In this document: positions 14,837 through 64,000 of the stretch, piece after piece
Position numbering within the stretch: the stretch's first letter is position 1
Layout: the number at the start of each line of letters is the position of its first letter
Source of the DNA: an uncultured Hyphomicrobiales bacterium
GTDB lineage: Bacteria; Bacteroidota; Ignavibacteria; Kapaibacteriales; UBA2268
Reading direction: 5' to 3'
DNA: 64,000 nt
Assembly: GCA_964454975.1 (NCBI GenBank)
Contig: CAYVVD010000008.1
Location: forward strand, 52,915 to 116,914
The notes under the pieces: model-generated
Database searches by the model: none
What the model saw: the letters and a program-made list of their open reading frames with translations, nothing else
What the model was told of the DNA's origin: nothing
Program-made: the position numbers and the translations under genes

Positions 14837-14967
14837 TTTTATAAGGTAATTTACAACATCTGCATTAGACGGAATGCCTTAGTTTATACTGTTCAAACTG
14901 AATAGTTGAATTTTCGGCAATGGAATTTATTATATTTAGAAGAATTTTTATTTAAAGCCCGGTAGTG

Positions 14968-46511: not shown

Positions 46512-46520
46512 GGGCTTCAA

Positions 46521-48614: not shown

Positions 48615-49072
48615 TAGTTACCTCAGAATGTAAAATTAAATCCGTTGAAATTATGAAAGTTCGCTCAATTAAAAAAGCAAATAATACAATCGTATGCTTT
48701 TACTAAGCCTTTGAAAAATAAAGACTAACGCCATTGTCCGATTAATATTGTTCCCCTGTGCTCTTTTACACGACGGCAATGAGATTAACTCAAAATTCAA
48801 GAGATATTTAGTTTTTGAATTTCAAAAAAGAACAGAATTTGGATATTAATTTTTGATATTATGACAATGAAAAAAGTTGTCGGGGTTAGTCAGTATAAGT
48901 ATTTAGCTGCTTTGCAAGAAACTGACCCAATTATATTATTGAAACAGGTTAATTGGAGACAATCCTCTGATTTGGCAACAGGATTGGAGTTGTCATAATC
49001 CGTATATAGAGGAATTTATGCTTACAATATCTGAGATATACTTACGATTCTAATGCTATTCCCAAAGATTAA

Positions 49073-50014
49073 ATGTATAATCGATTTATGATGAAAAGTA
49101 ATATTATAAAAGGTCTTTTAACAGTACTGCTCATCACGGGGTGTAATTATATTGAGGATGAATCCGAGAAGAAGGTGGTGGACTTTACTTTGAAACGAAC
49201 ACAAAATGCAATAGATTCTAATGATTATAACCCGTCAGAAAAATTAAAAGTAGCTATTTCTGCTATAGTATCGCCCCGGGAGACATTTATTTACTATGAA
49301 GAATTACTTGACTATATATCAAAAAAGGTAAATAGCCCAATAGAGATGAAGCAAAGAAAAACGTATAGTGAGGTGAATCAGATGCTGCTGAACAATGAAG
49401 TAGACATGGCATTTATTTGTTCAGGAGCTTACATAAAAATCAATGAAACGAATCAGGTAGAATTATTGGCTATACCCGTTTGCAATGGTAAACCATACTA
49501 TCAGGCATATATTATCACCAATAATCAATCAGGTATAGAAAAATTTGATGATCTTGAAGGTAAATCCTTTGCATTTACCGACCCCCTTTCAAACACAGGA
49601 AAACTCTATGCCGAGAAACGACTGCACGAATTGAATTTGTCTTCTGAAACGTTTTTTTCTTCGACCATGTATACACACGCACATGATATTTCCATCCAGT
49701 TGGTTTCAAAAATGGTTGTTGATGCAGCTACTGTTGACGCGCTGATTTATGATTATTTAGAAAAATTCTATCCTGAACGGGTTAAAAATATCAAAATAAT
49801 CGAAAAGTCAGAGTATTTTGGTATACCACCGGTTGTGGTTCCGGCTTCAGTTCCTGACGAGTTAAAAAAAGAATTAAAATCAATTTTTCTTTCCCTTCAT
49901 AAAGATTCAATTGGAAGTAAAATTTTGGATAAATTACTGATTGATCGTTTTATCGAAGGAAACGATGAGAATTACGACAGTATTCGTGAAATGCAAAAAT
50001 TAGTCAAGCAATGA
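49073..50014 (+). CDS. Periplasmic solute-binding-protein-like lipoprotein (PhnD/SsuA-type fold), the likely sensor partner of the downstream histidine kinase
   Basis: Lipobox (ITGC) and a type-2 periplasmic-binding fold. Its stop overlaps the histidine kinase start. Confidence 0.65.
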   Translation: MYNRFMMKSNIIKGLLTVLLITGCNYIEDESEKKVVDFTLKRTQNAIDSNDYNPSEKLKVAISAIVSPRETFIYYEELLDYISKKVNSPIEMKQRKTYSEVNQMLLNNEVDMAFICSGAYIKINETNQVELLAIPVCNGKPYYQAYIITNNQSGIEKFDDLEGKSFAFTDPLSNTGKLYAEKRLHELNLSSETFFSSTMYTHAHDISIQLVSKMVVDAATVDALIYDYLEKFYPERVKNIKIIEKSEYFGIPPVVVPASVPDELKKELKSIFLSLHKDSIGSKILDKLLIDRFIEGNDENYDSIREMQKLVKQ

Positions 50015-51516
50015 AAAATCCTTTGTATATACCCCTATTCTGGAAATTCTCTATTGCAATTACCGGAACAGTTGTTGTATTTGGGCTTATCAATTTATAT
50101 TTTACGAATTATGCTGTATATGATTTATTCGAAAGCGAGCTAATCAGACATGGTAAAATAACTGCCACAAGCATTGCTGAAAGAAGTGTAATTCCAATTG
50201 CTTATGGGGATTTAGCTGCATTAGATTTTATTGTAACCGACCAAAAGAAGATTGATCCGGGCATTGCTTACTTATTTATTATTGATAAAGACGGGCAATT
50301 AATAGCCCATACATTTGATCAAACTGTTCCACCTGAACTTTTAAAAGCGAACAAGGCATCTATAAACGATTCCGTTTACACTGTTATAATTGAACCAAAA
50401 AGCAATCCTAATATCAAGATAAGGGATCTGACGGTGCCAATTATGCAGGGCAATCTGGGTGTTGTTCGTATTGGGATGTTCGAAGAAAACTTTTTAAAAA
50501 GTATTCACAAAACCACTCGCATATTTCTCGTCATGGTATTGATTTTTTTAATTTTGGGAATACTTGGGGCATTCTTTTTCTCATATATCATAACCACCCC
50601 CTTGAAAGCAATAAATGATATTTCCGGAAAAATTGAGCTGGGTAATTTGGACTTGCAAGAGGAAGATTTTGAAGTTGTATTAAACAAGTTCGAACATGTA
50701 AAATGGAAGAATATATTAAATATTAAAGACGAGATAGATGTATTAATCAAAAGTTTTGGAGAAATGGTAACCAGGCTCAAAAGTACCTATTCTGAGCTTC
50801 AAAAAACGCAATCCTCTTTGTTCCAGTCAGAAAAACTGGCTTCTCTCGGTACTTTATCTGCAGGGATCGCCCACGAAATAAATAATCCTATTGCAGGTAT
50901 TCAGAATTGTGTAAGACGCTTACGGGAAGCCCCGGAAAACATCAGGCAAAATATTTTGTATCTGGAAATTATAGATGAAGCTCTAAAAAAAGTAGAAAAA
51001 GTCGTACGCGGGTTACTGGATTTTAGTAGAAAACCGGATATGCATTTGACCAAAACAAGTATTAATTCAATAATTGAAAATGTTTTATTATTGGTTTCCT
51101 ATAAGTTGGAAAAGTCGGGAATTGCCGTAATCAAAAATTATAATCACAATAATTTAATGGTTAATGCCAGCGCTAATCATTTTGAACAGGTAATATTAAA
51201 CTTAGTATTAAACAGCATTGATGCAATTGATGAAAAGAAGATGGCCGATCCATCTCACACTGGTGAAATCATGTTTAAAATTAAGGAGACATCAAAATCC
51301 GTTGAACTTGAGATTTCAGATAATGGAATTGGGTTGCCTAATAAACACTTAAAAGAGATTTTTAACCCTTTTTTTACAATGAAAAAAGTAAGACTCGGCA
51401 TTGGATTGGGACTGGCGGTAAGTTATAGCATTATTGAGCAACATAATGGTGAATTAACAGTCAGGGAGAACAGCATGAAAGGATTAACATTTTTAATTTC
51501 ACTTTCAAAAAATTAG
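50011..51516 (+). CDS. Sensor histidine kinase
   Basis: Two TM helices flank a periplasmic domain. Then HisKA (SAGIAHEINNP) and HATPase_c (N, G1, G2 boxes). Confidence 0.88.
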   Translation: MKNPLYIPLFWKFSIAITGTVVVFGLINLYFTNYAVYDLFESELIRHGKITATSIAERSVIPIAYGDLAALDFIVTDQKKIDPGIAYLFIIDKDGQLIAHTFDQTVPPELLKANKASINDSVYTVIIEPKSNPNIKIRDLTVPIMQGNLGVVRIGMFEENFLKSIHKTTRIFLVMVLIFLILGILGAFFFSYIITTPLKAINDISGKIELGNLDLQEEDFEVVLNKFEHVKWKNILNIKDEIDVLIKSFGEMVTRLKSTYSELQKTQSSLFQSEKLASLGTLSAGIAHEINNPIAGIQNCVRRLREAPENIRQNILYLEIIDEALKKVEKVVRGLLDFSRKPDMHLTKTSINSIIENVLLLVSYKLEKSGIAVIKNYNHNNLMVNASANHFEQVILNLVLNSIDAIDEKKMADPSHTGEIMFKIKETSKSVELEISDNGIGLPNKHLKEIFNPFFTMKKVRLGIGLGLAVSYSIIEQHNGELTVRENSMKGLTFLISLSKN

Positions 51517-51517
51517 A

Positions 51518-52879
51518 ATGATGAATAATGGAGCATATATCTGGGTTGTTGATGATGAGCGTATCGTGCGCGTATCACTGGCAGATGATCTTAGAGATGC
51601 AGGTTACAAGGTTAAAGAGTTTTCTAATGCAAATTCAGTATTGTCGGCATTCTCAACCAATGAATTTCCTGATATTATCATCACTGACATAAAAATGCCG
51701 GGTATTGACGGAGTTGAACTTTTGAAAAAAATTAAGGATATAAACAACAATATACAGGTATTAATGATGACAGCATTTGGTTCAGTCGAAAATGCTGTTG
51801 AAACTATGAAACTGGGGGCATACGACTATATCTTAAAGCCATTTAATAAGGATGAAATACTTCTTAATATCATAAAAATCCTGGAACTGAAAAAATACCG
51901 GGAAGAAAACAAATTGCTGAAAGAAAATATTGCAGCGAAGTATGACTTTACTAAATACATTGGAGATAAAAAGGATAATAACCAACTGTTCGACCTGATA
52001 AAATTGGTTGTTCATAAAGATACCACAGTATTAATAACCGGAGAAACCGGTACAGGAAAAGAATTAATAACTAATATAATTCATTATAACAGTGAAAGAA
52101 GAACGAAACCATTTATAAAAGTAAGCTGTGCCATTTTAGCCCGTGATATTTTTGAAAGTGAACTATTTGGTTACGAAAAAGGGGCATTTACAGGGGCACA
52201 GGAAAAAAATATTGGCCGCTTTGAACGTGCTCATGGCGGTACACTCTATTTGGACGATATTGACGATATTCCCCTTGAATTACAAGTGAAATTATTGCGG
52301 GCACTGGAAGAGAGGGAAATAGAGAGATTAGGAGGTGCTCAAACTATTAAAATTGATGTCAGGCTTATTGCTTCTACCAAAAAAAATCTTCTCCAACTTG
52401 TTCAGAAGGGCAATTTCAGAGAAGACCTTTACTACCGTCTTAATGTTTTTCCCATCAACCTTCCTCCATTGCGGGAACGTCATGATGATATAAAAATTCT
52501 GATAGAACATTTCATGAGGCATTTTTCAACTAATCCTGATATTTCTATTACTTCTGAAGCTCTGGATGTACTGCTTAATTATCCTTTTCCGGGTAATGTC
52601 AGGGAGTTGAGAAATATCATGGAGCGACTGGTCCTGTTGGCTCCTGGTGGAATTATCGAATTAAAGCACATACCAGGTGAACTCATTAACCGCGAACTGA
52701 TTCATCCATTCCTTTCTGTTGGTACTAAACCGCTAAACGAAATGTTGACTGAATATGAATCAATCATGATCAGGCAAGCATTGCAAAAAGCGAATAACAA
52801 CAAATCCCGTGCTGCAGATTTGTTGGGTATTCCTGCTACTACACTTTACTCCAAAATAGATAAACTAAAAATTTCATAA
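51518..52879 (+). CDS. Sigma54-dependent response regulator (NtrC/Fis family: REC, AAA+ sigma54-interaction and HTH domains)
   Basis: REC domain, then an AAA+ region with GETGTGKE Walker A and the ESELFGYEKGAFTGA motif (GAFTGA is the sigma54-contact loop). A C-terminal Fis-type HTH follows. Confidence 0.92.
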   Translation: MMNNGAYIWVVDDERIVRVSLADDLRDAGYKVKEFSNANSVLSAFSTNEFPDIIITDIKMPGIDGVELLKKIKDINNNIQVLMMTAFGSVENAVETMKLGAYDYILKPFNKDEILLNIIKILELKKYREENKLLKENIAAKYDFTKYIGDKKDNNQLFDLIKLVVHKDTTVLITGETGTGKELITNIIHYNSERRTKPFIKVSCAILARDIFESELFGYEKGAFTGAQEKNIGRFERAHGGTLYLDDIDDIPLELQVKLLRALEEREIERLGGAQTIKIDVRLIASTKKNLLQLVQKGNFREDLYYRLNVFPINLPPLRERHDDIKILIEHFMRHFSTNPDISITSEALDVLLNYPFPGNVRELRNIMERLVLLAPGGIIELKHIPGELINRELIHPFLSVGTKPLNEMLTEYESIMIRQALQKANNNKSRAADLLGIPATTLYSKIDKLKIS

Positions 52880-52899
52880 TTAGTATTGTATTCTAAAAA

Positions 52900-52948
52900 C
52901 TACGAGATATCATTTATTTCGACGAAATCTCGTAGGTTTTTTATTTAT
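52900..52948 (+). terminator. Rho-independent terminator after the sigma54 regulator gene
   Basis: CTACGAGAT...ATCTCGTAG 9-bp stem with an inner 6-bp stem (ATTTCG/CGAAAT). A GTTTTTTATTTAT tract follows. Confidence 0.65.
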
Positions 52949-52992
52949 AGGGTTACCTAAACTGAATTTGATGAAAGCTTCTATGAAATGGC

Positions 52993-53009
52993 TAAATGAC
53001 TGTCATTTA
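52993..53009. promoter_or_regulatory. 17-bp perfect palindrome TAAATGACTGTCATTTA, a candidate upstream activator (enhancer) site for the adjacent NtrC-type regulator
   Basis: Perfect dyad symmetry, about 60 bp upstream of the predicted -24/-12 promoter. Confidence 0.45.
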
Positions 53010-53068
53010 ATAATTTAGCTCAATATAAATTTGCTTGCCGCATTTTATTCAACTCTTTAAAAAAAATT

Positions 53069-53084
53069 GGTATATGTATTGCCA
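53069..53084 (+). promoter_or_regulatory. Sigma54 (-24/-12) promoter candidate: TGGTATATGTATTGCC
   Basis: The GG and GC dinucleotides are spaced exactly as in the TGGCACG-N4-TTGCW consensus. It lies ~30 bp upstream of the first ORF of the oxidoreductase operon and immediately downstream of a sigma54 activator gene. Confidence 0.55.
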
Positions 53085-53115
53085 TATATCGGCTGTGAAA
53101 CAAAATGCAACTAAA

Positions 53116-54348
53116 ATGAAACTGGAAAAAATACTAAAACTGAAAAAATTGATTTGCTTATCCCTGTTAACCGGAGTATTATTACAGGGGTGTGAATACG
53201 AGATAATACCCGGCCCAAATATTCCAAGAGAAACGGCCACAGTGGAAGCCATATATATCAAGACTGCAAATCCGGTTCTTTCCAATTCTCCAATATGGGA
53301 AGAAGCTAATTTTTCTAAAATAAGTTTATCTGACTTGATTACCGGTCAATCTTATGGTGATGGATACCGTGACGCAAACGGTACTATAAATGGCATTTCG
53401 GGTTTGGGCGGAAGTAATCAAGTTGGGCTGACATTGAAAGCCATGTACGATGATGAATATATCTATATACTGGCACAATGGAACGATTCGACATTAAACG
53501 TTCAATATAAAAATTGGTTGTGGGAAGACAATAAATGGTTTAGGGTTGGCAATACGGATAAACTCATAATTAAGTTTGAAATGGGAGAAATGAAAGATGT
53601 ATGGCAATGGAGCGCCGCACTTACTGAACCGATTGGTTACGCAACAGATGGTATTGAGGAAGAAAATATATTTAAGCCTGATGAAGGAGAATTGACTTTC
53701 GAATATTTTAGCAACGAATTGTCAAAACCGATTTTTGAGTGGGATGGTGAGGCGCCAATATTTACAAAACCCAGTGGATTCCCTGCAATTTTAGATCCTG
53801 CTTACTTTATTGCAGGTACAACCGATTACATAGGAGATCCTTCAGTCGGCAGAGTTTTATTTAAAGAAAACTGTATTGCCTGCCATGGGAATTATGGAGA
53901 AAGTGGTTTTAACCGCGTCGGTTACGGAGAAAGTCTCGACCCAGAGAAGTTGAACAGATGGAGCAGGAAGACTATGGATGATTTTATCCGCTCCGAAACA
54001 CATGATGGGAATATTGTATTTAGTACTCTCGACTATATTGACAAAGCAAATCTATTTGCCTACATACGCGGAGCAGGAGGAATCCCGGGATTCAGATTGC
54101 AAGAACCTTCGGGGAGCGCTGCCGATGTAGAAGTACAAACATTTATATCACTTGTGAAAGTAAACCCGAAAAATACTAATTATGAAGTTATGTTTAAACG
54201 AAAACTCCAAACCGGAATGCAAGACGATGTTCAGTTTAATCCGGAAACTGTTCGAGTAAGGTTCGGTATCCTTTTATCTGATAACGACGACTTGAATTTT
54301 GTTGGAGCGTTAAATCAAGAATTAATATTCCTGGAATCAAAATACTAA
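53116..54348 (+). CDS. Heme-binding lipoprotein. It has an EB_dh/DOMON-like (DMSO-reductase type II gamma-subunit-like) domain with an embedded c-type heme motif (CIACH).
   Basis: Signal peptide with a lipobox (LLQGC). A CxxCH motif appears at NCIACHGNYG. The EB_dh-like assignment comes from overall composition and motifs only (AMYDDEYIYILAQWND ... VRFGILLSDND). Confidence 0.55.
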   Translation: MKLEKILKLKKLICLSLLTGVLLQGCEYEIIPGPNIPRETATVEAIYIKTANPVLSNSPIWEEANFSKISLSDLITGQSYGDGYRDANGTINGISGLGGSNQVGLTLKAMYDDEYIYILAQWNDSTLNVQYKNWLWEDNKWFRVGNTDKLIIKFEMGEMKDVWQWSAALTEPIGYATDGIEEENIFKPDEGELTFEYFSNELSKPIFEWDGEAPIFTKPSGFPAILDPAYFIAGTTDYIGDPSVGRVLFKENCIACHGNYGESGFNRVGYGESLDPEKLNRWSRKTMDDFIRSETHDGNIVFSTLDYIDKANLFAYIRGAGGIPGFRLQEPSGSAADVEVQTFISLVKVNPKNTNYEVMFKRKLQTGMQDDVQFNPETVRVRFGILLSDNDDLNFVGALNQELIFLESKY

Positions 54349-54353
54349 AAACA

Positions 54354-54734
54354 ATGAAGAAGTTCTACAAAATACTACCGGCATTTATATTGCTTATTTT
54401 CACCTTAGCTTCGTGTGAGAGTGTTGTTTATATACCCTCCGGAGAAATACCTGCCAATCTTAGCTATAGTGAAGATGTATTAGCAATTTTTAACAGGAGC
54501 TGTAATAGAGGAGGCTGCCATAATTCGGGGGGGGTGCCACCGGATCTGTCGCCTCAAAATGGATATAACTATATGGTTTATGGTGGTATGATTGATACTG
54601 CCAACCCGGAAAACAGTTTAATATATCTAAGTATGAACGATCTAAAAAATCCGATGCCTCCGGAAGGATTACTTTCGGTTTACGAGAGAAGTATTGTCCT
54701 GGGATGGATCCAACAAGGAGCAAATAATAATTAA
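54354..54734 (+). CDS. Small lipoprotein with a PSCyt1-like (Planctomycete-type cytochrome c-like) domain and an atypical CNRGGCH (Cx4CH) motif
   Basis: Lipobox (LASC). The C-terminal MPP...WIQQGA region matches the PSCyt1 tail. The canonical CxxCH is replaced by Cx4CH. Confidence 0.5.
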   Translation: MKKFYKILPAFILLIFTLASCESVVYIPSGEIPANLSYSEDVLAIFNRSCNRGGCHNSGGVPPDLSPQNGYNYMVYGGMIDTANPENSLIYLSMNDLKNPMPPEGLLSVYERSIVLGWIQQGANNN

Positions 54735-54753
54735 CTATAAAATCTGTAAAATC

Positions 54754-55626
54754 ATGAAAGAACAAAATTTTCTCATATTGATCCTCGCGTTTGTAATTTT
54801 AACTTTTCCCATCGTTGCCCAAGACCTGATGGATGAACTGGACGCGGAAGTAGGCGAGCAAACAGAATATGCAGCTTATACATTTAAGTCTACACGTATT
54901 TTGAATGGCCACTCCATTGAGAGGATGCAAGAAAGCCAGCTCGATTTCAGAATTAACCATCGATTTGGTGAGTTGAATTCAGGATTCGAAGAGCTTTGGG
55001 GACTTGATAATGCCCTGATAAGTTTCAGCCTTGAGTATGGTATTACTGATTGGGTAATGGTCGGCCTTCGCCGAAGTACTTCTCAGAAAACCTATGATGG
55101 ATTTACCAAATTCACATTAATACGCCAGTCAACAGGAGCAGTTACAATGCCTGTTGCGATTTCCTATCTAACTGGAGTATCACTTCCATCAATCGAATAT
55201 AATGATCCTACAAGAGAAGATCTGCTGAAGCACAGACTGTCTTTTACTCACCAGATTTTAGTAGCACGAAAATTTAACGAAGAATTTTCGTTGCAGTTTA
55301 CTCCTTCATACGTTCACCATAATCAGGTTGACGAGGGATGGAGCAACGATGTTTATGCGCTTGGTATCGGTGGCAGATATAAATTCTCACGGAGGGTTGC
55401 CTTTATGTTTGAATACTTTTATTCGAGCGAAACAAGCAAACATGAAGAATTATATAATCCGTTATCGTTAGGGTTTGATATAGAAACCGGTGGCCATGTA
55501 TTCCAATTGTTTATTTGTAATTCAAAATCAATGGTTGAGAGCGAAGTTGTTGGAGGTACATTTAGCGATTGGGGTAAAGGGGAAGTGTTTTTCGGATTTA
55601 ATATCAGCCGGGTTTTTGCCCTGTAA
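54754..55626 (+). CDS. Outer-membrane beta-barrel-like protein (DUF5777-like)
   Basis: Signal peptide, alternating amphipathic beta-strand pattern, and C-terminal ...GFNISRVFAL. Start is taken at MKEQNF. Confidence 0.5.
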   Translation: MKEQNFLILILAFVILTFPIVAQDLMDELDAEVGEQTEYAAYTFKSTRILNGHSIERMQESQLDFRINHRFGELNSGFEELWGLDNALISFSLEYGITDWVMVGLRRSTSQKTYDGFTKFTLIRQSTGAVTMPVAISYLTGVSLPSIEYNDPTREDLLKHRLSFTHQILVARKFNEEFSLQFTPSYVHHNQVDEGWSNDVYALGIGGRYKFSRRVAFMFEYFYSSETSKHEELYNPLSLGFDIETGGHVFQLFICNSKSMVESEVVGGTFSDWGKGEVFFGFNISRVFAL

Positions 55627-55671
55627 TAGTCAAAGCAACATTATTTATTAATATTAATTTTAGGTTTAATC

Positions 55672-56223
55672 ATGATGAAAATAGTAATTACGGTAGTTCT
55701 AATGTTTTTTGGTTTGAACGCTGTTCATGCTCAGAAGTACATTACTAAAACTGGTGAAATTGAAATCTTTTCGGAAACATCCTTATTCACTATTGAGGCT
55801 GTTAATAATAGCGTGGCAAGTATACTAAATACTGATAATGGTGAGATAGTTGTTTCCACGCTTGTCAGATCATTTGATTTCGAAGAGGCACTTGTCGAAG
55901 AGCATTTTAATGAAAACTACATGGAGTCTCACAAATATCCTAAAGCTTCCTTCAAAGGAATTATTTCTGATTGGAATAAAGTGGATATTTCGAAAGACGG
56001 CACCTATAATTTGACTGTTAAAGGGGACTTAACTCTTCATGGAACCACAGTTAAATTATCGGAACCGGTAAAAATTGCAATAAAAAAGGATAAAATAATT
56101 GGAAACACAACTTTTATCGTTTCGCTCAAAGCTCATGGAATACAAGTGGAAGAAAGTTACAAGGACAGGATTAAAGATGAAGTTGAACTGAAAGTCCATT
56201 TTGAATATAGTCCTCATAAATAG
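55672..56223 (+). CDS. YceI-family (polyisoprenoid-binding) periplasmic protein
   Basis: 183-aa ORF with a signal peptide and the YceI-like 8-stranded barrel motif pattern. Confidence 0.75.
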   Translation: MMKIVITVVLMFFGLNAVHAQKYITKTGEIEIFSETSLFTIEAVNNSVASILNTDNGEIVVSTLVRSFDFEEALVEEHFNENYMESHKYPKASFKGIISDWNKVDISKDGTYNLTVKGDLTLHGTTVKLSEPVKIAIKKDKIIGNTTFIVSLKAHGIQVEESYKDRIKDEVELKVHFEYSPHK

Positions 56224-56256
56224 TCAAATTTTTGAACAAACTATAAAAAAGATCAA

Positions 56257-56688
56257 ATGAAAAAACTGCTTAAAATATTCCTAATAGTACTGGCTGTTGG
56301 TATCTTAGCCGGTGTGGCAGGGGTTTATTACGTATTCAATAAACCGGAAAGAAACATCGCTAAAGAGGAATCAGCATTGGTCACAAGTGCTGAAGAACTC
56401 TACCAATTGTTCAGTAATGACGAAACGAAGGTTTATGGAGAATACGGTAATAAAATACTTGAGGTAGAAGGCGAAATCGTTGAAGCAAACAATGCAGGCG
56501 GTGCTGTAACAATTGTTTTGAACGACCCGATGGAGGGGGTTACTTGTACGTTTGATAGTTTGTATTCTGCAAATAATCCGGATAAAATTGAGCAATTGGT
56601 TGTGGGAAAAACAGTAAGGGTAAAAGGGAAGTGTGACGGTTTCGATATGATACTGGGTGTTGTCCTTACCAAGTGCCTTATTCTTTAG
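56257..56688 (+). CDS. Membrane-anchored OB-fold (tRNA_anti-like) protein
   Basis: N-terminal TM helix, then a small beta-rich domain with the GEIVEANNAGGAVTIVL pattern. Confidence 0.5.
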   Translation: MKKLLKIFLIVLAVGILAGVAGVYYVFNKPERNIAKEESALVTSAEELYQLFSNDETKVYGEYGNKILEVEGEIVEANNAGGAVTIVLNDPMEGVTCTFDSLYSANNPDKIEQLVVGKTVRVKGKCDGFDMILGVVLTKCLIL

Positions 56689-56793
56689 ATATGGTTTATT
56701 GCGAGTAATTGAGACACCTATGGACATCGAATAATTATAATTTCATTTTTGATCTTAAAGCAGACTTTTTTTGAAAAAATTAATGTAATCAAT

Positions 56794-59310
56794 ATGAAAA
56801 TTCAAAGAAGAGATTTTATAAAAACATTAGCCATAGGTGGCTCCGGATTCTTATTCTTTCGACCTTCTCTGGAAGTATTTGCCGATTTTGACAATACTGC
56901 CAAGCCCATGGGCATTGAGGATGGGGAGTGGATCCCGTCAACTTGTCAGGGCTGCACTACCTGGTGTTCGGTTGAAATTTTCGTAAAAAATAAAAGAGTA
57001 ATAAAAGTTCGTGGGAACCAATATTCAAGTGTAAATCCCGGTTATGTATGTCCGCGTGGACATTTGATTCCTCAAATATTATATGATCCGGACAGGTTAA
57101 AAACACCACTAAAAAGGACAAATCCTGTAAAAAGCCGACACGCAAACCCAAAATTCATCCCTATTACCTGGGATGAAGCACTTGATGAAATCGCAGACCA
57201 GTTAATAGCACTAAGAAATAATGGGGAATCGCACAAATTCGGCGTTTTCAGGGGCAGGTACAGTTACTCGCGGGATATAATTTACACTGCAATACCAAAA
57301 ATTGTTGGTTCTCCTAACAGTATCGCACATAGTTCGAGCTGTGCTGAGGTCGAAAAATCCGGGGCATTCTTCACCGAAGGTTTTTGGGATTACCGGGATT
57401 ATGATTTGGCCAATACCAAATGCTGTGTGCTCTGGGGAGTGGATCCAACCCGGTCTAACCGACAAGTGCCCGGGGTTATGAATAGATTTCCCGACTTATT
57501 GGAACAGGCAAGCGTGATTACTATTGACCCGGTGCTCACAACGGCGGCATCAAAATCAAAATACTGGCTGCCTGTAAAACCCGGGTATGATGGTGCACTG
57601 GCTTCTGCTATTGCTCACGAAATTATGGTGGACGGATCATGGAATAAGGAATTTGTGGGTGATTTTACGGATGGAACCAACCGTTTTGTTACCGGTGAGG
57701 AAGTGAACGAAAGTTTGTTTCAGGAGAATTATAGCAATGGCCTGGTTAAATGGTGGAACCTGGAGCTAAAAGATAAACCTGCTTCCTGGGCAGCATCTGT
57801 TTGTGGCATTTCGGCTTCGCTGATAAAAAACGTAGCCATGGAAATGGCAAAAGCAGCCCCTAATGTTATTGTTTGGATGGGGCCAGGCCCCGTTATGTCG
57901 CCTAAAGGAACATACACCGCTATGGCTATTCATTGCCTCAATGGTTTGCTGGGTTCGGCTGATAACGAAGGAGGTTCCATTCGGCACGTCAAACAAAAAG
58001 TAAATGGTATACCAGATTATTCGGATTACCAGGATGATATTGCCAAAGCAGGGGCTTCGTACCAAAAAATCGACCAGAGCGGATATCTTGACCTTCCAGC
58101 ACTAAATAATGGAATATCTGGAGGCGGGGTGGTCACAAACAACGTGCCGGATGCCATGCTTGCAAAAGACCCTTACGAAATGAAAGCCGTAATTGGTTAC
58201 TGGAACAATTTTAATTTTTCCGGTACAGGTACCAGACGATGGGACGAAGCCATGGCTAAACTTCCCTTCTTTGCACACATCACTACGCATGCCTCAGAAA
58301 TGACACGCTTTGCAGACATCGTGTTGCCTGCTGCTTGTCATGCCGGTGAAAAATGGTCGTACCTGAAAAATTTTGGCAATACGTATTCAAGTATTTCTAT
58401 CCAGCAACCTCTTGTTGAGCGAATGTTTGATGTATATGCCGATGAAAATGAAATTTGCTGGAAGCTGGCTGTAAAACTCAAAGAAAAAGGCTTCTCAAAT
58501 TTATATGATTATTACTACAACGAATTTAAAGATCCTGAAACGGGCGCAAACCCAACCAACGAACATGAATTTGCCCTGTATGCCACAAAATACATGACTA
58601 AACCTTCATGGGATTTACTTCAAGGCGGATGGGATGAATTTAAGGAAAAAGGAGTGAAAAACTTCGGGCCTTATGAATTCCGCTCAAAATGGGAAGACTT
58701 TGGAACTGTCTCAGGGAAGTTTGAATTTTATTCTGAAACATTGAAAAAGGCACTGGAAGGCCATGCTGATAGACATTCAGTAACAGTAGATGAAGTTTTA
58801 GAAGCATGCAAATACGATGCCCGGGGCGAGTTGGCTTTCGTACCGCATTTTGAAGCACCCAGCCGTTGGGGCAATACCTCAGATTATCCGCTTGATTTTA
58901 TAGATGCTAAATCCCGCTTAAACAGAGAAGGAAGAAGTCAGAACAGCCCCTGGTACTATAGTTTTAAACGTTGTGATCCGGGGGATGAAAATCAAGAGGA
59001 TCTCATCAAAATCAATCCGCTTGATGCTGAAAAATATGGTATAAAAGATGGGGATATGGTCAAACTTATTACCGTGGAAGGGTTCATGGTTGGAAAAGTA
59101 AAATTGTGGGAAGGAATAAGACCCGGGACAGTGGCTAAAAACTACGGTATGGGTCACAGCGCTTACGGAAAATTTGCCTCCGAAAATTTTGAACTCGGCC
59201 TGGCCCGGGGCTCAAACAATAACGATTTCCTGCCGGCAGATTACGATAGGATATCGGGAAGTACAGCGAGAAACGGAGGTTTTACGGGAGTTAGAATTGA
59301 AAAAATTTAG
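56794..59310 (+). CDS. Molybdopterin (bis-MGD) oxidoreductase catalytic subunit with a Tat signal peptide (PsrA/ArrA/TtrA-like)
   Basis: Twin-arginine signal MKIQRRDFIKTLAIGG. The N-terminal [4Fe-4S] motif is CQGCTTWCS...CPRG (Cx2Cx3C...C), followed by MopB and molybdopterin-binding regions. Start is taken at the ATG at 56794. Confidence 0.9.
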   Translation: MKIQRRDFIKTLAIGGSGFLFFRPSLEVFADFDNTAKPMGIEDGEWIPSTCQGCTTWCSVEIFVKNKRVIKVRGNQYSSVNPGYVCPRGHLIPQILYDPDRLKTPLKRTNPVKSRHANPKFIPITWDEALDEIADQLIALRNNGESHKFGVFRGRYSYSRDIIYTAIPKIVGSPNSIAHSSSCAEVEKSGAFFTEGFWDYRDYDLANTKCCVLWGVDPTRSNRQVPGVMNRFPDLLEQASVITIDPVLTTAASKSKYWLPVKPGYDGALASAIAHEIMVDGSWNKEFVGDFTDGTNRFVTGEEVNESLFQENYSNGLVKWWNLELKDKPASWAASVCGISASLIKNVAMEMAKAAPNVIVWMGPGPVMSPKGTYTAMAIHCLNGLLGSADNEGGSIRHVKQKVNGIPDYSDYQDDIAKAGASYQKIDQSGYLDLPALNNGISGGGVVTNNVPDAMLAKDPYEMKAVIGYWNNFNFSGTGTRRWDEAMAKLPFFAHITTHASEMTRFADIVLPAACHAGEKWSYLKNFGNTYSSISIQQPLVERMFDVYADENEICWKLAVKLKEKGFSNLYDYYYNEFKDPETGANPTNEHEFALYATKYMTKPSWDLLQGGWDEFKEKGVKNFGPYEFRSKWEDFGTVSGKFEFYSETLKKALEGHADRHSVTVDEVLEACKYDARGELAFVPHFEAPSRWGNTSDYPLDFIDAKSRLNREGRSQNSPWYYSFKRCDPGDENQEDLIKINPLDAEKYGIKDGDMVKLITVEGFMVGKVKLWEGIRPGTVAKNYGMGHSAYGKFASENFELGLARGSNNNDFLPADYDRISGSTARNGGFTGVRIEKI

Positions 59311-59321
59311 GGTTTAGAATT

Positions 59322-60395
59322 ATGGCGCAAAAAGCGATGGTTATAAATTTACACAACTGCGTTGGTTGTGGTGCTTGCGGAATTGGATGCAAGGTAGAAA
59401 ATAATACCCAAATAAGCAATGATAAAACAACTTTTAATTGGGCTGATTTCCATGTGATGAACAAGGGTACTTTTCCCGATATAAAATACACTAATTATCC
59501 GGTACTTTGTAACCACTGTTCAGATGCACCTTGTGTTGATGCTTGCCCTTTGGAAGAAAAAGCCATTTTTAAGACCGCGGATGGTTTAACTATGACCAAT
59601 GAAGAGAGATGCATTGGATGTCAATCATGCATAGTAGCATGTCCGTACAGTTCAAGAGATGTTAAGAATGATGATGTTCAATATTCCATTATAAGCTTTA
59701 ATGAACCCGATGAAAAAACACATGATTATTGGGGATCATCAATCCCTTTCATCAAAAATGGTTCATCTAATCCGAAAGAAGTGGCTCAACTGACACAGAA
59801 TAAGCCTCCTTATGCAAACGATTATGAACATGAGGATTACAATGCTATAAGAAAATCGGGTGTAATAGAGAAATGTATATTTTGCGAACATCGCACCAGG
59901 AAAGGTGAACTACCGTATTGTGTGGTTGTATGCCCTTGCAATGCAAGGATTTTTGGTGATATAGATGATCCGGAAAGTGAAGTTAGTAAATTGCTGGCAA
60001 AGTATGAAGCCAAAACCTTTAAAAATAACAAAGGTGAGTTCCTTGCGAAGAACGAAAAAGGTACTCAGCCAAATGTTTACTACATACGCGATAAGGAAAA
60101 CGTAGCAACCAGTATTGTTGAAGAAAAACACATAGAAACGCAGTTTAAAGTGTATCCAAATCCTGCAAGTACGAACTTGAATATTGAAGTTTTTCTTGAA
60201 ACTAGTGATTTCATTTCAATTGATCTATATGATATTTCTGGAAGGGTTGCCTTGAATATTGTAAATAACGAGTTTACCCCTGCAGGAAACATTAAATACA
60301 ATGCGTCGCTTAATAATCTGCAATCAGGTACTTATATTTGCAGAGTACAAGTTAAAAATGTTTCTCAGGCGCAGACTGTAATTGTTACTCGATAA
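59322..60395 (+). CDS. 4x[4Fe-4S] ferredoxin-type electron-transfer subunit (PsrB/DmsB/NrfC-like) fused to a C-terminal T9SS sorting domain (CTD)
   Basis: Four Cys clusters (CVGCGACGIGC; CNHCSDAPCVDACP; CIGCQSCIVACP; CIFCEH...CVVVCPC). There is no signal peptide. The last ~84 aa (from 60141) are a type-A T9SS CTD: KVYPNPAS, IDLYDISGRVA, LQSGTYICRVQVKNVSQAQTVIV. Confidence 0.85.
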   Translation: MAQKAMVINLHNCVGCGACGIGCKVENNTQISNDKTTFNWADFHVMNKGTFPDIKYTNYPVLCNHCSDAPCVDACPLEEKAIFKTADGLTMTNEERCIGCQSCIVACPYSSRDVKNDDVQYSIISFNEPDEKTHDYWGSSIPFIKNGSSNPKEVAQLTQNKPPYANDYEHEDYNAIRKSGVIEKCIFCEHRTRKGELPYCVVVCPCNARIFGDIDDPESEVSKLLAKYEAKTFKNNKGEFLAKNEKGTQPNVYYIRDKENVATSIVEEKHIETQFKVYPNPASTNLNIEVFLETSDFISIDLYDISGRVALNIVNNEFTPAGNIKYNASLNNLQSGTYICRVQVKNVSQAQTVIVTR

Positions 60396-60400
60396 ACGTC

Positions 60401-61060
60401 ATGGTTATGAAAAAACCGGAAATTGAAGCTCAAATATTTAACCTTTATGCTGCATTATTTTGTGAACCTCAACAGGAACGTGATGATAATCTGCTAATAT
60501 TGGAGACTCTTGAATCTTTGCAATGTGAATTAAGTATGCGGTTCAGGGAGTTTACTAGCCTTAAAGAAACGTTTTTACAATTCGATCTCCAAAGTTTATT
60601 GATTGATTACACACGCATATTCATCGGGCCTTTTCACGTTGTAGCTTATCCATATAGTTCGACATACTTTTCTGAAGGGGTTAATACACTTTACAATGAA
60701 ACCACAGCATGGGTAGAGCAATTCTATAGAACCTGTGGTTTATCTTTTCAAAACACTGTGAAAGATATGCCTGATCATATTGCCGTAGAATTGGAATTTC
60801 TGTATACGATTAAGTACAATACAAACAATTTATTAAGAGAAGGGAATAAAGAACGTGGTGAGCTCTTGAGAAGAAAGTATTCTGAATTTATTAACAGTCA
60901 TTTTGGCATCTGGGCGCCCAGGTTATGTGACATGGTGGTAAGTGGAGCAAATGACACATATTATGCAGAGCTTTGCAGATGGCTTAATGGTTTTATCAGG
61001 TATTATTTAATGCCAACGATCAATACTTCGAAAACCATTGATGGATCTTGTGTTGGCTAG
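60401..61060 (+). CDS. TorD/DmsD-family redox-enzyme maturation chaperone
   Basis: 219-aa ORF with TorD-family motifs (YAALFCEPQQ, LIDYTRIFIGP, MPDHIAVELEFL). Confidence 0.78.
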   Translation: MVMKKPEIEAQIFNLYAALFCEPQQERDDNLLILETLESLQCELSMRFREFTSLKETFLQFDLQSLLIDYTRIFIGPFHVVAYPYSSTYFSEGVNTLYNETTAWVEQFYRTCGLSFQNTVKDMPDHIAVELEFLYTIKYNTNNLLREGNKERGELLRRKYSEFINSHFGIWAPRLCDMVVSGANDTYYAELCRWLNGFIRYYLMPTINTSKTIDGSCVG

Positions 61061-61277
61061 AGCGAAGATTTTTCTTTGTTATTAGTTGAAAAGTGAGTTA
61101 ATTAGAAAAGCTCCGAGCTGCCTTGCCTTTTTAGAGTAATGCAGCCTATGGGACAGGCTGGAAACAGCTTGTCCTCCCGATTCCCGCTTATGATAGTCGG
61201 GATGAATTGGAAAGGAGCAGATATTTTTTATATAAAAGTGCTTCATTTGTTTTTAACAAGTGTTGATGCTATATATT

Positions 61278-61318
61278 ATTGTGCCACTCGGCCTGAATAT
61301 ATTCATTAGTGGCACAAT
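61278..61318. promoter_or_regulatory. 11-bp perfect inverted repeat ATTGTGCCACT-N19-AGTGGCACAAT, upstream of the tauE-mobAB-moeA genes
   Basis: Read directly from the sequence. The half-site resembles a TGGCAC-type element. A protein-binding operator is plausible. Confidence 0.4.
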
Positions 61319-61388
61319 TACCGAGCGGGCAATGTCCGTTAATGTATAAATATCTGTCTTCTTTAATGTTACAATAAAAAATTGAAAG

Positions 61389-62117
61389 ATGACAGATATT
61401 TTATTTTTAGCCGGAATATTCATTATTGCCATCCTCTATTCTTCGGTAGGGCATGGGGGTGCCAGTGGTTACCTTGCATTTATGGCCTTACTGTCCTTTA
61501 GTCCTGACATTATGCGGCCAGCAGCACTGATACTTAATATTTTAGTATCAGCAATTGCTTTATTCTTGTATGCGAAAAACACACATTTTAAGTTTAAACT
61601 TTTTTGGCCATTTGCCCTGACTGCTATGCCCATGGCTTTTATGGGTGGCTTAATCTCAATAAATCAGGGGCCATATAAATTTATACTTGGTTTTTTCTTG
61701 CTCTTTGCCTCCGTAAGAATGATTTATAAATTCAAAACAAAAAGCATTAACCAAAAAAAATTAAACGTGCCAATAGCTTTATTTCTAGGGGCATGCCTTG
61801 GGTTTTTCAGCGGTATGATTGGCATTGGCGGAGGAATAATATTAAGCCCTGTAATCCTTTTGTTACATTGGGCCGACGCAAAAAAAACAGCAGCTGTTTC
61901 AGCAGCGTTTATACTTGCTAATTCCATGGCAGGGCTAACCGGTTTCCTTGTCAGGAATTCAATGCCCGATATGGAAATAGCCTATGTGATACTGGCCGGT
62001 GTTGTCGGAGGTTTTGTTGGTTCTTATTTAGGCAGTTTCCGGATAAAAGAACTGTACTTGCGTTATTCACTTGCCGTGGTTCTGGTATTTGCAGGCATAA
62101 AACTGATGTTGTTATGA
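61389..62117 (+). CDS. TauE/SafE (TSUP) family anion exporter/permease
   Basis: 242-aa ORF with two TSUP 4-TM repeats (GxGGG motifs). Confidence 0.8.
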   Translation: MTDILFLAGIFIIAILYSSVGHGGASGYLAFMALLSFSPDIMRPAALILNILVSAIALFLYAKNTHFKFKLFWPFALTAMPMAFMGGLISINQGPYKFILGFFLLFASVRMIYKFKTKSINQKKLNVPIALFLGACLGFFSGMIGIGGGIILSPVILLLHWADAKKTAAVSAAFILANSMAGLTGFLVRNSMPDMEIAYVILAGVVGGFVGSYLGSFRIKELYLRYSLAVVLVFAGIKLMLL

Positions 62118-63220
62118 GTAAAATTTCGGGCATACTGTTGGCTGGAGGAAGAAGTACTCGTATGGGCACGGACAAAGCCTTTATCCGGTTTCTTGGAAAA
62201 AAACTAATAGAACACAACCTGAGTTTACTGAATGCATTGTGCCAGGAAGTGCTGATAAGTGCGAACCAGACTGTTTATGAAAGATTCGGCATACCGGTAA
62301 TAAATGATAAATTTGAAGATGCAGGGCCTATTGGCGGTATACATGCCTGCCTGGAGAAAGCATCGTTTCAGTACAGCCTCATCTTATCCTGCGATTTACC
62401 TTTTTTGAACCAAAGTTTGCTGTATGGTTTGCTAATCCATATTCACGAGGGGTATGATATAATTGCGTATCAATATAATAATCTGGTTGAACCGCTTTTT
62501 GCCTGTTACTCAAAAAATGTAATACCTAAAATCGAAGAAAACATAGAACAAAAAGATTTTAAACTACAGAACCTATTTAAACAACTCAGGGTTAAGCTGC
62601 TTCCATTACACAACAAGCTGTTTTCGGCGAACCTGAATTCTGTTTCCGACATGCGTGCTTTTCAAAACCAGTTTCGCTGGAAGTTGCCCAATATGATAAT
62701 AGTTTCCGGTGACGGTAGAAATGTGGGCAAAACCTTTTTTACCTGCTCGGCAATAAAACACTTTTCAAGACAACAGCAGGTTTTGGCCGTGAAAACATCC
62801 TCGCATTTTCATGAGACTTTCCGTAAAGAGCAAGTAATTAATGAAGGCGCTGATTATAAAATCATACAAGAAACCAGCATAAATCAAAAAGACAGTTCAC
62901 GAATGCTTCAAGCCGGGGCGCATGAATCCTTTTTCATAATGGCTGACAAAAACGGCCTGTCCGAGTCATTTGAACAACTGGTACCATTGTTTAAAGATAA
63001 AATTATCATAGCCGAATCGGGCGGTTTATGTGATTTTGTCCTTCCCGGTTTCTTTTTCTTTATAAAACCGGATAAACTGCTAATTCAAAAGAAAAGTTAT
63101 TTAAAATACCAGCCCATTATGGTTAACAACAGTTCAAAAGGTTTTGATTTCAATGTAGAAACCCTTGATTTTAGGGATAATCATGTAATAATTAAAGAGT
63201 TGCACAATGGAAGCATTTGA
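62114..63220 (+). CDS. mobA: Molybdenum cofactor guanylyltransferase MobA fused to a MobB-like P-loop domain
   Basis: The N-terminus carries LLAGGRSTRMG...DK and a DLPF-containing MobA fold. The C-terminus has a P-loop, SGDGRNVGKT. The gene overlaps the tauE stop by 4 nt. Confidence 0.78.
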   Translation: MSKISGILLAGGRSTRMGTDKAFIRFLGKKLIEHNLSLLNALCQEVLISANQTVYERFGIPVINDKFEDAGPIGGIHACLEKASFQYSLILSCDLPFLNQSLLYGLLIHIHEGYDIIAYQYNNLVEPLFACYSKNVIPKIEENIEQKDFKLQNLFKQLRVKLLPLHNKLFSANLNSVSDMRAFQNQFRWKLPNMIIVSGDGRNVGKTFFTCSAIKHFSRQQQVLAVKTSSHFHETFRKEQVINEGADYKIIQETSINQKDSSRMLQAGAHESFFIMADKNGLSESFEQLVPLFKDKIIIAESGGLCDFVLPGFFFFIKPDKLLIQKKSYLKYQPIMVNNSSKGFDFNVETLDFRDNHVIIKELHNGSI

Positions 63221-64000
63221 AAAAATACAACAAATAATCAGCCATACTAAATCTTCGCACACAGTTGAGGAAAAAACTTTAAAGGATATTACCGGCCATG
63301 TGCTTCAACAAGATATTGTCTCTGATATGGATATGCCCCCGTTCGACAAATCAGCCATGGATGGCTATGCATGCTGTAAACAGGATATAGCGAATCCTCT
63401 TAAATTAATAGAAGTGATAGCAGCAGGAAGTGTTCCCGTAAATGAGATAAAAGAAAACCAGTGCTCTAAGATTATGACCGGAGCCAAAGTACCAATCGGG
63501 GCCGATTGTGTTTTTATGGTGGAAGATGCTGAAAAAATCGATGAAAATACCGTTCGTTGCATCAACCTAAAAACCAAAACCAACATTTGTTACCGGGGCG
63601 AAGATTGCAAAAACGGCGATATTTTGCTGCAAAAAGGCCGGATTATAAAATCCGAACATTTGCCAATTATGGCATCGGCAGGATACACCCGGGTAAAAGT
63701 AAGTCGAATGCCGACCATTGGATTGATTGTTACAGGCTCCGAACTGGTTGAACCGGATCAAAAGCCCGACAATGGGAAAATACGCAATTCCAATGCGATT
63801 CAAATATCAGCATTATGCAAAAAAATGAACCTTGAAGTTAAATATTACGGAATAGTTGTTGACGATATCAAGCAACTGAGTACGGTGTTTAATATGGCAA
63901 TGAATGAAACCGATGTGATCATGATTACCGGGGGGGCATCTATGGGCGATTATGACCTTGTACCGGAATTGTTGTCAGTTTCGGGGTTTGAAATAATTTG
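63207..64000 (+). CDS. moeA: Molybdopterin molybdenumtransferase MoeA (5' part; the gene runs off the window)
   Basis: My own translation from the ATG at 63207 stays open to the window end. It contains the MoeA hallmark PPFDKSAMDGYA and MTGAKVP. Confidence 0.8.
   Translation, partial: MEAFEKIQQIISHTKSSHTVEEKTLKDITGHVLQQDIVSDMDMPPFDKSAMDGYACCKQDIANPLKLIEVIAAGSVPVNEIKENQCSKIMTGAKVPIGADCVFMVEDAEKIDENTVRCINLKTKTNICYRGEDCKNGDILLQKGRIIKSEHLPIMASAGYTRVKVSRMPTIGLIVTGSELVEPDQKPDNGKIRNSNAIQISALCKKMNLEVKYYGIVVDDIKQLSTVFNMAMNETDVIMITGGASMGDYDLVPELLSVSGFEII

Follow-up and report, generated by a model that had tools for sequence, protein, structure and literature searches.

Arsenate-respiring bacteria release sediment arsenic into groundwater, and access to mineral-bound arsenate depends on the location of the reductase. 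The respiratory arsenate reductase ArrAB of Shewanella has no membrane anchor and receives its electrons from the tetrahaem cytochrome CymA (PMC2762525). In the ArrXSR sensor, arsenate is bound by the first component, ArrX, with a dissociation constant (Kd) of 1 µM, and Bacteroidetes are not among the arr-bearing phyla listed by Badilla et al. 2018 (PMC5908839). Here we analysed a stretch of 64,000 nt from an uncultured bacterium (assembly GCA_964454975.1, contig CAYVVD010000008.1; hereafter the window). Judged by its gene content, the region at 49073-64000 is a gene cluster for arsenate respiration (arr); the nearest relatives of its ArrA assign it to a Bacteroidota genome. It is laid out as arrXSR, a sigma54-like promoter, five accessory genes, arrABD, a molybdenum cofactor (Moco) riboswitch and tauE-mobA-moeA. 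We favour, with modest confidence, a reading in which the arsenate-induced ArrAB would be passed from the twin-arginine translocation (Tat) pathway to the secretion system of type IX (T9SS) and displayed at the cell surface. The enzyme and the sensor are known; the arrangement is new.

The catalytic subunit is encoded at 56794-59310 (+) and, by the matches that follow, is an orthologue of ArrA. It aligned end to end (residues 59-853) with the crystallised ArrA of Shewanella sp. ANA-3 (6cz7_A) at 888.6 bits (E 4e-266), and the next solved family in a PDB sequence search was the polysulfide/thiosulfate reductase PsrA at 152 bits. The N-terminus of this predicted bis-molybdopterin guanine dinucleotide (bis-MGD) subunit carries a Tat signal (MKIQRRDFIKT) and a CX2CX3C..C [4Fe-4S] motif (CQGCTTWC...C), both invariant in relatives. 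The HSSxCAE..K stretch with the molybdenum-ligand Cys, and the pocket Tyr, are identical to those of the ANA-3 enzyme. The molybdenum ligand and arsenate pocket of ANA-3 ArrA reportedly comprise R165, Y166, H189, S190, C193, K198 and Y210; all seven positions are identical in the window ArrA by pairwise alignment, and R155, Y156, H179, S180, C183, K188 and Y200 are invariant across five Bacteroidota ArrAs. FRGRYSY in the window ArrA aligns with LRGRYSH of ANA-3. According to a passage in PMC6549141, which cites Glasser et al. 2018, (R/K)GRY marks ArrA and XGRGWG marks the arsenite oxidase ArxA. In a neighbour-joining tree of 85 ArrAs, built without an ArxA outgroup, the window protein was placed within a large ArrA radiation to which Shewanella ArrA also belongs. 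The nearest ArrA relatives are from metagenome-assembled genomes (MAGs) of Roseivirgaceae and Cyclobacteriaceae.

ArrB is encoded by the open reading frame (ORF) at 59322-60395 (+). Its core and linker (residues 1-276; 59322-60149) hold 16 Cys residues in four motifs for [4Fe-4S] clusters, and residues 5-257 matched ANA-3 ArrB (6cz7_B) at 177.5 bits. The 3′ neighbour, arrD (60401-61060, +), encodes a NarJ/TorD-family Tat proofreading chaperone (PF02613, E 7.8e-24) and lies in this position in nearly all arr loci. In NCBIfam, ArrA scored best with NF041714 (1027.7 bits, short of the equivalog cutoff of 1600; runner-up PhsA, 222) and ArrB with NF041715 (209.6 bits, under the equivalog cutoff of 450). 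These shortfalls count against the assignment, but a reduced ArrA score is expected of a divergent lineage; to our knowledge, characterised ArrAs come from other phyla. Because of the same shortfalls, MAG surveys of arsenic cycling are likely to give ArrA and ArrB of this lineage no more than the generic labels molybdopterin oxidoreductase and 4Fe-4S protein.

Two other identities were considered for the catalytic subunit and rejected. An alpha subunit of the type II DMSO-reductase group was ruled out by its score with TIGR03479 (117.9 bits against a cutoff of 984.75) and by its ArrA-like character with a Cys ligand. ArxA was ruled out by the presence of RGRY, the absence of XGRGWG and the best NCBIfam and PDB matches, which are to arsenate reductase. 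An earlier reading made from the letters of the window alone (the sequence-only reading) had held that the substrate cannot be inferred. We differ on this point: the matches of ArrA and ArrB, the (R/K)GRY motif and an ArrX-like sensor point to an arr locus, so that arsenate is inferable as the substrate.

Downstream of its Fe-S core, ArrB ends in a predicted T9SS type A C-terminal sorting domain (60150-60395, +). Residues 277-355 of 357 matched PF18962 at 44.7 bits (cutoff 27; E 1.6e-11) and TIGR04183 at 42.4 bits (cutoff 23). The protein starts with MAQKAMVINLHNCVGCGAC; its first Fe-S motif lies at residue 13 and no signal peptide was found, so that it is presumably exported by riding with the Tat-signal ArrA. 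Among the 120 best ArrB clusters of the protein database, about 70 had PF18962, and YPNP...G-x-Y...K motifs were common to 74 ArrB tails. In the ArrA tree, the loci whose ArrB bears the domain group into a single clade, made up of MAGs of Bacteroidota, Kapabacteria and Chlorobiota. Two loci nested in this clade, L021 and L023, have no sorting domain; L021 is binned as Planctomycetota. The absence could reflect loss after transfer to a host lacking T9SS, or a binning error.

In the sister group of this clade, which consists of L026 (Chloroherpeton), L028 and L035, the domain lies on the other subunit. ArrB is of normal length there, and ArrA (L026, 9923-12814; L028, 9938-12799; L035, 1884-4751) is about 100 residues longer, at 953-963 residues. 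The extensions matched PF18962 at 46-54 bits; in these proteins one and the same polypeptide has a T9SS sorting domain as well as a twin-arginine signal. Relatives bearing the domain on either subunit are nearly all Bacteroidota, Kapabacteria or Chlorobiota, the exception being L028, which is binned as Hyphomicrobiales. In keeping with a Tat-to-T9SS handover, a tatA gene is present inside the arr operon of L006. A second, unrelated ORF with a PF18962/Por_Secre_tail domain lies at 22745-23425 (-) of the window (226 residues, 32.9 bits against a cutoff of 27), which suggests that the genome uses T9SS sorting; genes of the T9SS machinery were not found within the window. We argue that the assembled ArrAB heterodimer is a genuine T9SS cargo, because the domain sits at the extreme C-terminus, is nearly confined to phyla with T9SS and occurs on either subunit.

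The sequence-only reading had also placed this module at the outer membrane or cell surface, on the ground of a barrel gene and of a missing membrane anchor that it took to be unusual. We looked at membrane proteins encoded beside arrA, using one genome per species (80 arrA loci) and Pfam. An NrfD gene (PF03916) lay directly upstream of arrA in 10 of the 80 loci and was lacking in the other 70; no arr locus with a sorting domain had one. Other membrane proteins near arrA were ArsP or Acr3-type (SBF family) permeases, MOT1 molybdate transporters and TauE. In the window, no ORF of NrfD-like, DmsC or multihaem NapC/CymA type was found, and near arrA in the window and in the loci with the sorting domain no ORF with at least five predicted membrane helices was present except TauE. 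In L003, whose ArrA is 87% identical to that of the window and whose gene order is the same, the 8 kb past moeA, taken as a proxy for the region beyond the window, contained no anchor gene; moaA and moaC-mog are followed there by DsrE and CMD genes. The absence of an NrfD/PsrC subunit is accordingly upheld, and an anchored complex of PsrABC or DmsABC type was ruled out by the lack of NrfD/PsrC and DmsC subunits in the operon. With 70 of 80 loci in this state and Shewanella drawing on CymA, absence of an NrfD anchor is, on this survey, normal for Arr. The surface reading itself is strengthened, both by the sorting domain, which is on ArrB clade-wide and on ArrA in the sister clade, and by MtrC-like multihaem lipoproteins or a CbcL-like fusion beside arr in relatives. 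It stands on the sorting domain, which is firmer ground than the barrel and the missing anchor.

Five accessory genes lie between the regulators and arrA. The first (53116-54348, +) encodes a lipoprotein with a DOMON/EB_dh β-sandwich and an inserted class I cytochrome c domain, a candidate γ-like redox partner. Its lipobox Cys and the C253xxC256H257 motif are invariant in 8 homologues. Its low-confidence model matched the fold of EbdC/NxrC-like γ subunits, which is that of subunits docking on the Fe-S subunit in related molybdoenzymes. The family with the full architecture is small (64 representatives at E<=1e-30). Two distant homologues, P0127 and P0128, have an extra insertion with a CX3CH-like motif (GCDAACH and GCEASCH; alignment columns ~195-215), which may be a second haem site. 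The second gene (54354-54734, +) encodes a lipoprotein of 126 residues with the lipobox LASC. Its motif reads CX4CH in the window and likewise in L003 and L011; in L025 it is CXXCH. No Pfam family was above threshold; at E<=10 the sole match was Cytochrome_CBB3 (E 0.12) and PSCyt1 was absent. The PSCyt1-like identity proposed earlier was dropped on this result, and the protein was kept as a small c-type cytochrome because the CX4CH/CXXCH motif is conserved. Each of the two cytochromes has a single haem motif, and no multihaem ORF was found in the window.

The remaining three accessory genes encode a DUF5777 protein (54754-55626, +; E 8e-91), a YceI-family periplasmic lipocalin-like protein with a signal peptide (55672-56223, +; PF04264, E 1.3e-13) and a tRNA_anti-like OB-fold protein with an N-terminal membrane anchor (56257-56688, +; PF12869, E 9.9e-15). 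The DUF5777 model is a 12-strand outer-membrane barrel (predicted local distance difference test score, pLDDT, 81) and resembles KdgM, NanC, FapF and COG4313 channels and autotransporter barrels. With 12 strands the barrel is too small to sheath a cytochrome, and an MtrB-like porin-cytochrome role was ruled out on this count and by the best fold matches, which were small solute or polypeptide channels. PDB sequence searches gave a weak match at best for YceI and none for the OB protein.

DUF5777 was then scanned in metagenome contigs, which gave 80 loci (L093-L172). Across many of these Bacteroidota-like contigs, DUF5777, YceI and the OB protein are repeatedly found with a monohaem lipoprotein of ~120-135 residues, in varying order and amid unrelated housekeeping genes, and YceI adjoins DUF5777 in most of the loci. 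DUF5777 has at least 7927 homologues, and nothing relevant on a function of the cassette or of DUF5777 was found in the literature. The full set of five genes, with the EB_dh cytochrome among them, is found on its own beside a Crp regulator and without arr in L173 and L174, and most arrAB loci with the sorting domain have no cassette. Because the cassette occurs without arr and most sorting-domain loci occur without the cassette, the accessory genes are best described from these surveys as a recruited general envelope module and not as Arr-specific subunits. The haem proteins, barrel and YceI had been read as specific partners of the molybdoenzyme, which the loci without arrA contradict. The OB protein is predicted to be anchored, the lipocalin soluble and the barrel in the outer membrane, and this spread over different envelope layers suggests transfer of a hydrophobic molecule; the trio could carry or channel such a molecule with a redox function, or could serve envelope protection.

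The two cytochromes nevertheless behave like partners of Arr in the comparison of loci. This is because of their pairing in L009 and L013 (Roseivirgaceae MAG), where arrR and arrA are separated by the genes of the EB_dh and small cytochromes alone and the trio is absent, and because other cytochromes lie beside arr in further relatives. In L014 (Cyclobacteriaceae MAG, Salar de Ascotan; ArrA 82% identical to the window), an 8-haem lipoprotein with MtrC/MtrF domains II/IV is encoded directly upstream of arrA (8756-9901); the lipoprotein encoded downstream of arrD (14920-16008) has 6 haems and a collagen-like Gly-X-Y linker. The arrB gene of L014 is split by a frameshift. A monohaem cytochrome c gene lies 3′ of arrD in the arr cluster of L017. 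In L025 (16400-20581), genes for the small cytochrome and DUF5777 are followed by one for a 930-residue protein in which 19 CxxCH motifs are fused to a cytochrome b561 domain (Ni_hydr_CYTB); this group sits 2.7 kb downstream of arrABD-mobA, and the fusion protein resembles the CbcL-type quinol oxidases known from extracellular electron transfer.

Putting these observations together, we propose the following course of events. Arsenate bound by ArrX would switch on the sigma54 promoter. ArrA and ArrB would receive their cofactors in the cytoplasm with the help of ArrD and then cross the inner membrane together via Tat. The sorting domain of ArrB would hand the folded heterodimer to the T9SS translocon, and the enzyme would come to lie on the external face of the outer membrane or be tethered to it. 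Arsenate, mineral-bound arsenate included, would be reduced at this site, and toxic arsenite would be released outside the cell. Electrons would come from the menaquinol pool via a quinol dehydrogenase encoded outside the window and would reach ArrB through the two co-transcribed cytochrome lipoproteins, of which the larger would dock like the γ subunit of EbdABC or Nxr. The DUF5777/YceI/OB trio would be a recruited general envelope cassette that may have a part in this chain.

Several observations weigh against this proposal. Localisation and electron path are both inferred, and all of the argument comes from sequence. A route for electrons across the outer membrane was not found, and the barrel has only 12 strands. 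The model of the EB_dh cytochrome is of low confidence (pLDDT 63.5) and its haem b ligands could not be assigned. Class I cytochromes c and EbdC-type haems are often of high potential, which would suit acceptance of electrons better than donation to arsenate. The absence of arrA from all 80 sampled DUF5777 metagenome loci indicates that the cassette is not dedicated to Arr. A cofactor-loaded heterodimer of ~120 kDa may be near the size limit of the translocon. T9SS cargo is described in reviews as exported by Sec (PMC9251779); molybdo or Fe-S enzymes were unmentioned in a survey of T9SS cargo classes, and we found no literature linking Arr with T9SS and nothing relevant on arsenate-respiring Bacteroidota.

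Alternatively, ArrAB might be an ordinary periplasmic enzyme, as in Shewanella, and the C-terminal β-sandwich of ArrB a relic or a docking/tethering domain instead of a working secretion signal. The cytochrome lipoproteins would then face the periplasm and be fed by an inner-membrane quinol dehydrogenase of alternative complex III (ACIII) or NapC/CymA-like type. No electron crossing of the outer membrane would be needed; a distant homologue of the EB_dh cytochrome adjoins a NapC/NirT gene (L010), the majority of arrAB loci have neither anchor nor sorting domain, the characterised ArrAB is soluble, periplasmic and fed by CymA (PMC2762525), and the described Sec dependence of T9SS cargo (PMC9251779) would raise no difficulty. 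We nevertheless regard this explanation as rather unlikely. The domain scores above the curated type A cutoffs, its motifs are kept across 74 sequences and it is always at the extreme C-terminus, whether on ArrB or on ArrA; it occurs in MAGs of Bacteroidota, Kapabacteria and Chlorobiota apart from the Hyphomicrobiales-binned L028, and is missing from the nested locus binned as Planctomycetota. Such conservation is not expected of a relic. Display of ArrAB at the surface is preferred. A stronger form of that reading, in which ArrAB of Bacteroidota, Kapabacteria and Chlorobiota is truly extracellular via Tat and then T9SS and the window's enzyme is wired to quinone by a new five-protein envelope module, is given limited credence. 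If it were true, the wiring module would consist of the DOMON-cytochrome c γ-like protein, the CX4CH cytochrome, DUF5777, YceI and the OB protein and would carry reducing equivalents, perhaps quinol, to the outer membrane; the passage of ArrAB would be the first Tat-to-T9SS route, and ArrAB the first redox enzyme complex among T9SS cargo.

The role given to the accessory genes can be disputed separately. They might be an independent redox cassette for envelope protection or lipid handling, in the way that BcnA-LcoA acts against lipid peroxyl radicals, and be co-induced with arr as arsenite causes oxidative damage to the envelope. YceI lipocalins do work with cytochrome b561 in peroxyl-radical detoxification (PMC9113575). 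The wide distribution of DUF5777 (at least 7927 homologues), the four-gene set in 80 sampled loci without arrA, variable in order and set among housekeeping genes, the five-gene set alone with a Crp regulator in L173, and the lack of the cassette in most loci with a sorting domain would all fit, and we hold this explanation to be possible but doubtful. It does not account for L009 and L013, where the EB_dh and small cytochromes alone are kept directly upstream of arrA, for the other cytochromes beside or flanking arrABD in relatives, or for a fold that in related molybdoenzymes docks on the Fe-S subunit; in L025, moreover, the genes beside arr for the small cytochrome and DUF5777 are accompanied by one for a multihaem protein of CbcL-like, quinol-oxidising type. 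The same fold match to EbdC/NxrC-type subunits could be turned to another use, namely that in vivo the enzyme runs oxidatively, as an arsenite oxidase of Arx-like type under anaerobic or microaerobic conditions, and gives electrons to the haem lipoproteins and then to a nitrate reductase or an oxidase. The ArrA reaction is reversible in vitro, and molybdoenzymes that oxidise their substrates typically pass electrons to haem subunits of EbdC/NxrC type and to class I cytochromes c. The ligand of the XSR sensor cannot be assigned from sequence either, the binding residues being common to ArrX, ArxX and AioX (PMC5908839). We consider oxidative operation very unlikely: RGRY is present and the XGRGWG of ArxA absent (PMC6549141), the best NCBIfam and PDB matches are to arsenate reductase, the sensor is nearer to ArrX (198 bits) than to AioX (136 bits), and the tree, although without an ArxA outgroup, puts the window protein in the ArrA radiation with Shewanella. 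Arsenate reduction by a surface-displayed ArrAB, with the two cytochromes as partners, remains the reading that we favour.

The regulatory genes lie at the 5′ end of the cluster. ArrX (49073-50014, +; PF12974, E 2.4e-56) is a lipoprotein and putative periplasmic oxyanion sensor of the PhnD/AioX/ArrX subfamily. Its best solved relative was ArrX of Chrysiogenes arsenatis (6x6b), at the 198 bits given above, and PtxB scored 70. Because ArrX, ArxX and AioX share their binding residues, specificity for arsenate versus arsenite or phosphate is unreadable from its sequence. ArrS (50011-51516, +) is a sensor histidine kinase with sCache_3_2, HisKA and HATPase_c domains, and ArrR (51518-52879, +) is an NtrC-type sigma54 activator with Response_reg, Sigma54_activat (E 2.7e-67) and HTH_8 domains. 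Together ArrX, ArrS and ArrR are, by their domains, a three-component oxyanion sensor. The genes arrX, arrS and arrR are co-linear in L003, L006, L009 and L011 too, and precede arrA there. A DDE transposase fragment lies upstream of arrX in L009.

A hairpin followed by a T-run lies 3′ of arrR (52895-52946, +). It has 17-nt arms that are 88% complementary, and its RNA fold has an energy of -12.9 kcal/mol (z -3.4). The sequence is kept in L003, L009 and L011, including the inner TTTCG...CGAAA arms. Most simply, the hairpin would be the terminator of arrXSR; it could also be a binding site of ArrR, ~130-170 bp upstream of the -24/-12 element. This element, TTGGTATATGTATTGCC (53067-53083, +), has the spacing GG-N10-GC and lies 33 nt upstream of the ATG at 53116. 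The gene set downstream of the hairpin, comprising the two cytochrome lipoproteins, the barrel, YceI, the OB protein and arrA-arrB-arrD, begins at this sigma54-like site. A looser sigma54 consensus with 2 mismatches was not enriched in the window over shuffles, and the strict motif was absent from the intergenic regions of relatives that were examined. The -12 GC is not conserved in relatives, and the -24 GG alone aligns (L003 and L009), which weighs against the course of events proposed above. The promoter call, which the sequence-only reading had made outright, therefore stands as to the presence of the element and is tentative, because the consensus is not enriched and relatives lack the strict motif.

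Downstream of arrD, a Moco riboswitch absent from the sequence-only reading was found at 61099-61233 (+). It matched RF01055 over its full length (model positions 1-135) with 55.5 bits (gathering score 36; E 3.4e-11) and from its position is predicted to govern the downstream tauE-mobA-moeA genes for Moco supply (61389-64000, +; PF01925, PF12804 and PF03453/PF00994; moeA is cut by the window end). TauE, MobA and MoeA were recognised as proposed; the MobB half of the proposed mobA-mobB fusion was weak, the C-terminal part of mobA scoring 17.5 bits against a cutoff of 26.6. In L003, moaA and moaC-mog follow moeA. The TauE/SafE-family permease is encoded at 61389-62117, and in many arr loci of Bacteroidota TauE comes 3′ of arrD. 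This place downstream of arrABD is taken in L026 and L054 by a gene for an MFS_MOT1 molybdate transporter, and for this reason the TauE-family protein may be an importer of molybdate or tungstate.

For the remainder of the gene content, the two readings agree. All ORFs named earlier were confirmed on the + strand in the same order and with small intergenic gaps (ORF list, Pfam and NCBIfam). Profiles bore out the sensory unit with its sigma54 activator, the EB_dh-like haem lipoprotein with its CxxCH, the outer-membrane barrel, YceI and OB-fold proteins, the Tat-signal bis-MGD subunit, the Fe-S subunit with a T9SS domain and the TorD chaperone. The GC content is 0.34-0.38 across the start of the arr region (46001-56000) and ~0.40-0.48 elsewhere (1-46000), and the GC skew remains positive up to the window end. 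The GC drop and the transposase fragment of L009 would fit an island that was acquired. The gene at 46521-48614 (-), which is the immediate upstream neighbour of the arr region on the other strand, encodes a lipoprotein of 697 residues whose peptidase domain is papain-like (C39/C70). Elsewhere in the window, at 11177-13432 (-), lies a gene for a 751-residue PHO4-family phosphate transporter; transporters of PHO4 type are able to import arsenate too.

Bacteroidota and their relatives are common in arsenic-rich salars, mats and sediments, and a surface ArrAB in them would, if true, change the picture of arsenic release and would keep arsenite production outside the cell. It would also be the first case found of a Tat substrate, and of a multi-subunit metalloenzyme, passed to T9SS, and would widen the Sec-only entry to that system. 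The widespread, uncharacterised four-gene envelope cassette of Bacteroidota, here apparently under arsenate control, may in turn offer a handle on its own function.

The locus can be compared with several described systems. The EB_dh cytochrome recalls the γ subunits EbdC, NxrC and SerC, but the α subunit here is of ArrA type with a Cys ligand and not of type II. The cytochrome is also lipid-anchored, has an inserted haem c domain and occurs without a molybdoenzyme (L173), and haem b ligands were not identified in it. With BcnA-LcoA (PMC9113575) the window shares a YceI-family exported lipocalin genetically linked to a haem protein, and the L025 partner has a b561 domain; unlike BcnA-LcoA, the window has no cytochrome b561, and the partners of its lipocalin are c-type cytochrome lipoproteins, DUF5777 and the OB-fold protein. 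The logic of MtrCAB and CbcL, an outer-membrane reductase or cytochrome with lipoprotein cytochromes in the operon, is the same as that proposed here, and two relatives have an MtrC-domain 8-haem lipoprotein (L014) or a 19-haem/cytochrome b fusion (L025) beside arr. The window itself has only monohaem proteins and a 12-strand barrel, not the 26-strand sheath around a decahaem cytochrome of MtrCAB.

The arrXSR-arrAB(D) clusters of Chrysiogenes arsenatis and Firmicutes likewise have an ArrX-type protein, a histidine kinase and a sigma54-type regulator adjoining arrAB (PMC5908839); in the window ArrX is a lipoprotein, and five accessory genes lie between the regulators and arrA. The Shewanella ANA-3 enzyme (6cz7) agrees with that of the window in its two subunits, molybdenum-ligand Cys, pocket residues, RGRY motif, Tat signal and four-cluster ArrB core, and its locus has a TorD-family chaperone and no NrfD in the operon. 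The window differs from it in regulation, by ArrXSR and presumably sigma54 instead of the Shewanella regulators, and in operon content, with two monohaem lipoproteins, the barrel, YceI and the OB protein and without a CymA-like gene in the window. Its ArrB is also longer by 100 residues, which form the linker and the T9SS sorting domain. Like that of T9SS type A cargo, this domain is terminal, exceeds the cutoffs in its scores, shows the motifs YPNP and G-x-Y...K and is nearly restricted to phyla with T9SS. Known cargo has its own signal peptide and travels via Sec (PMC9251779), whereas the tagged ArrB lacks one and would ride with a Tat substrate, and the cargo would here be a cofactor-loaded respiratory heterodimer.

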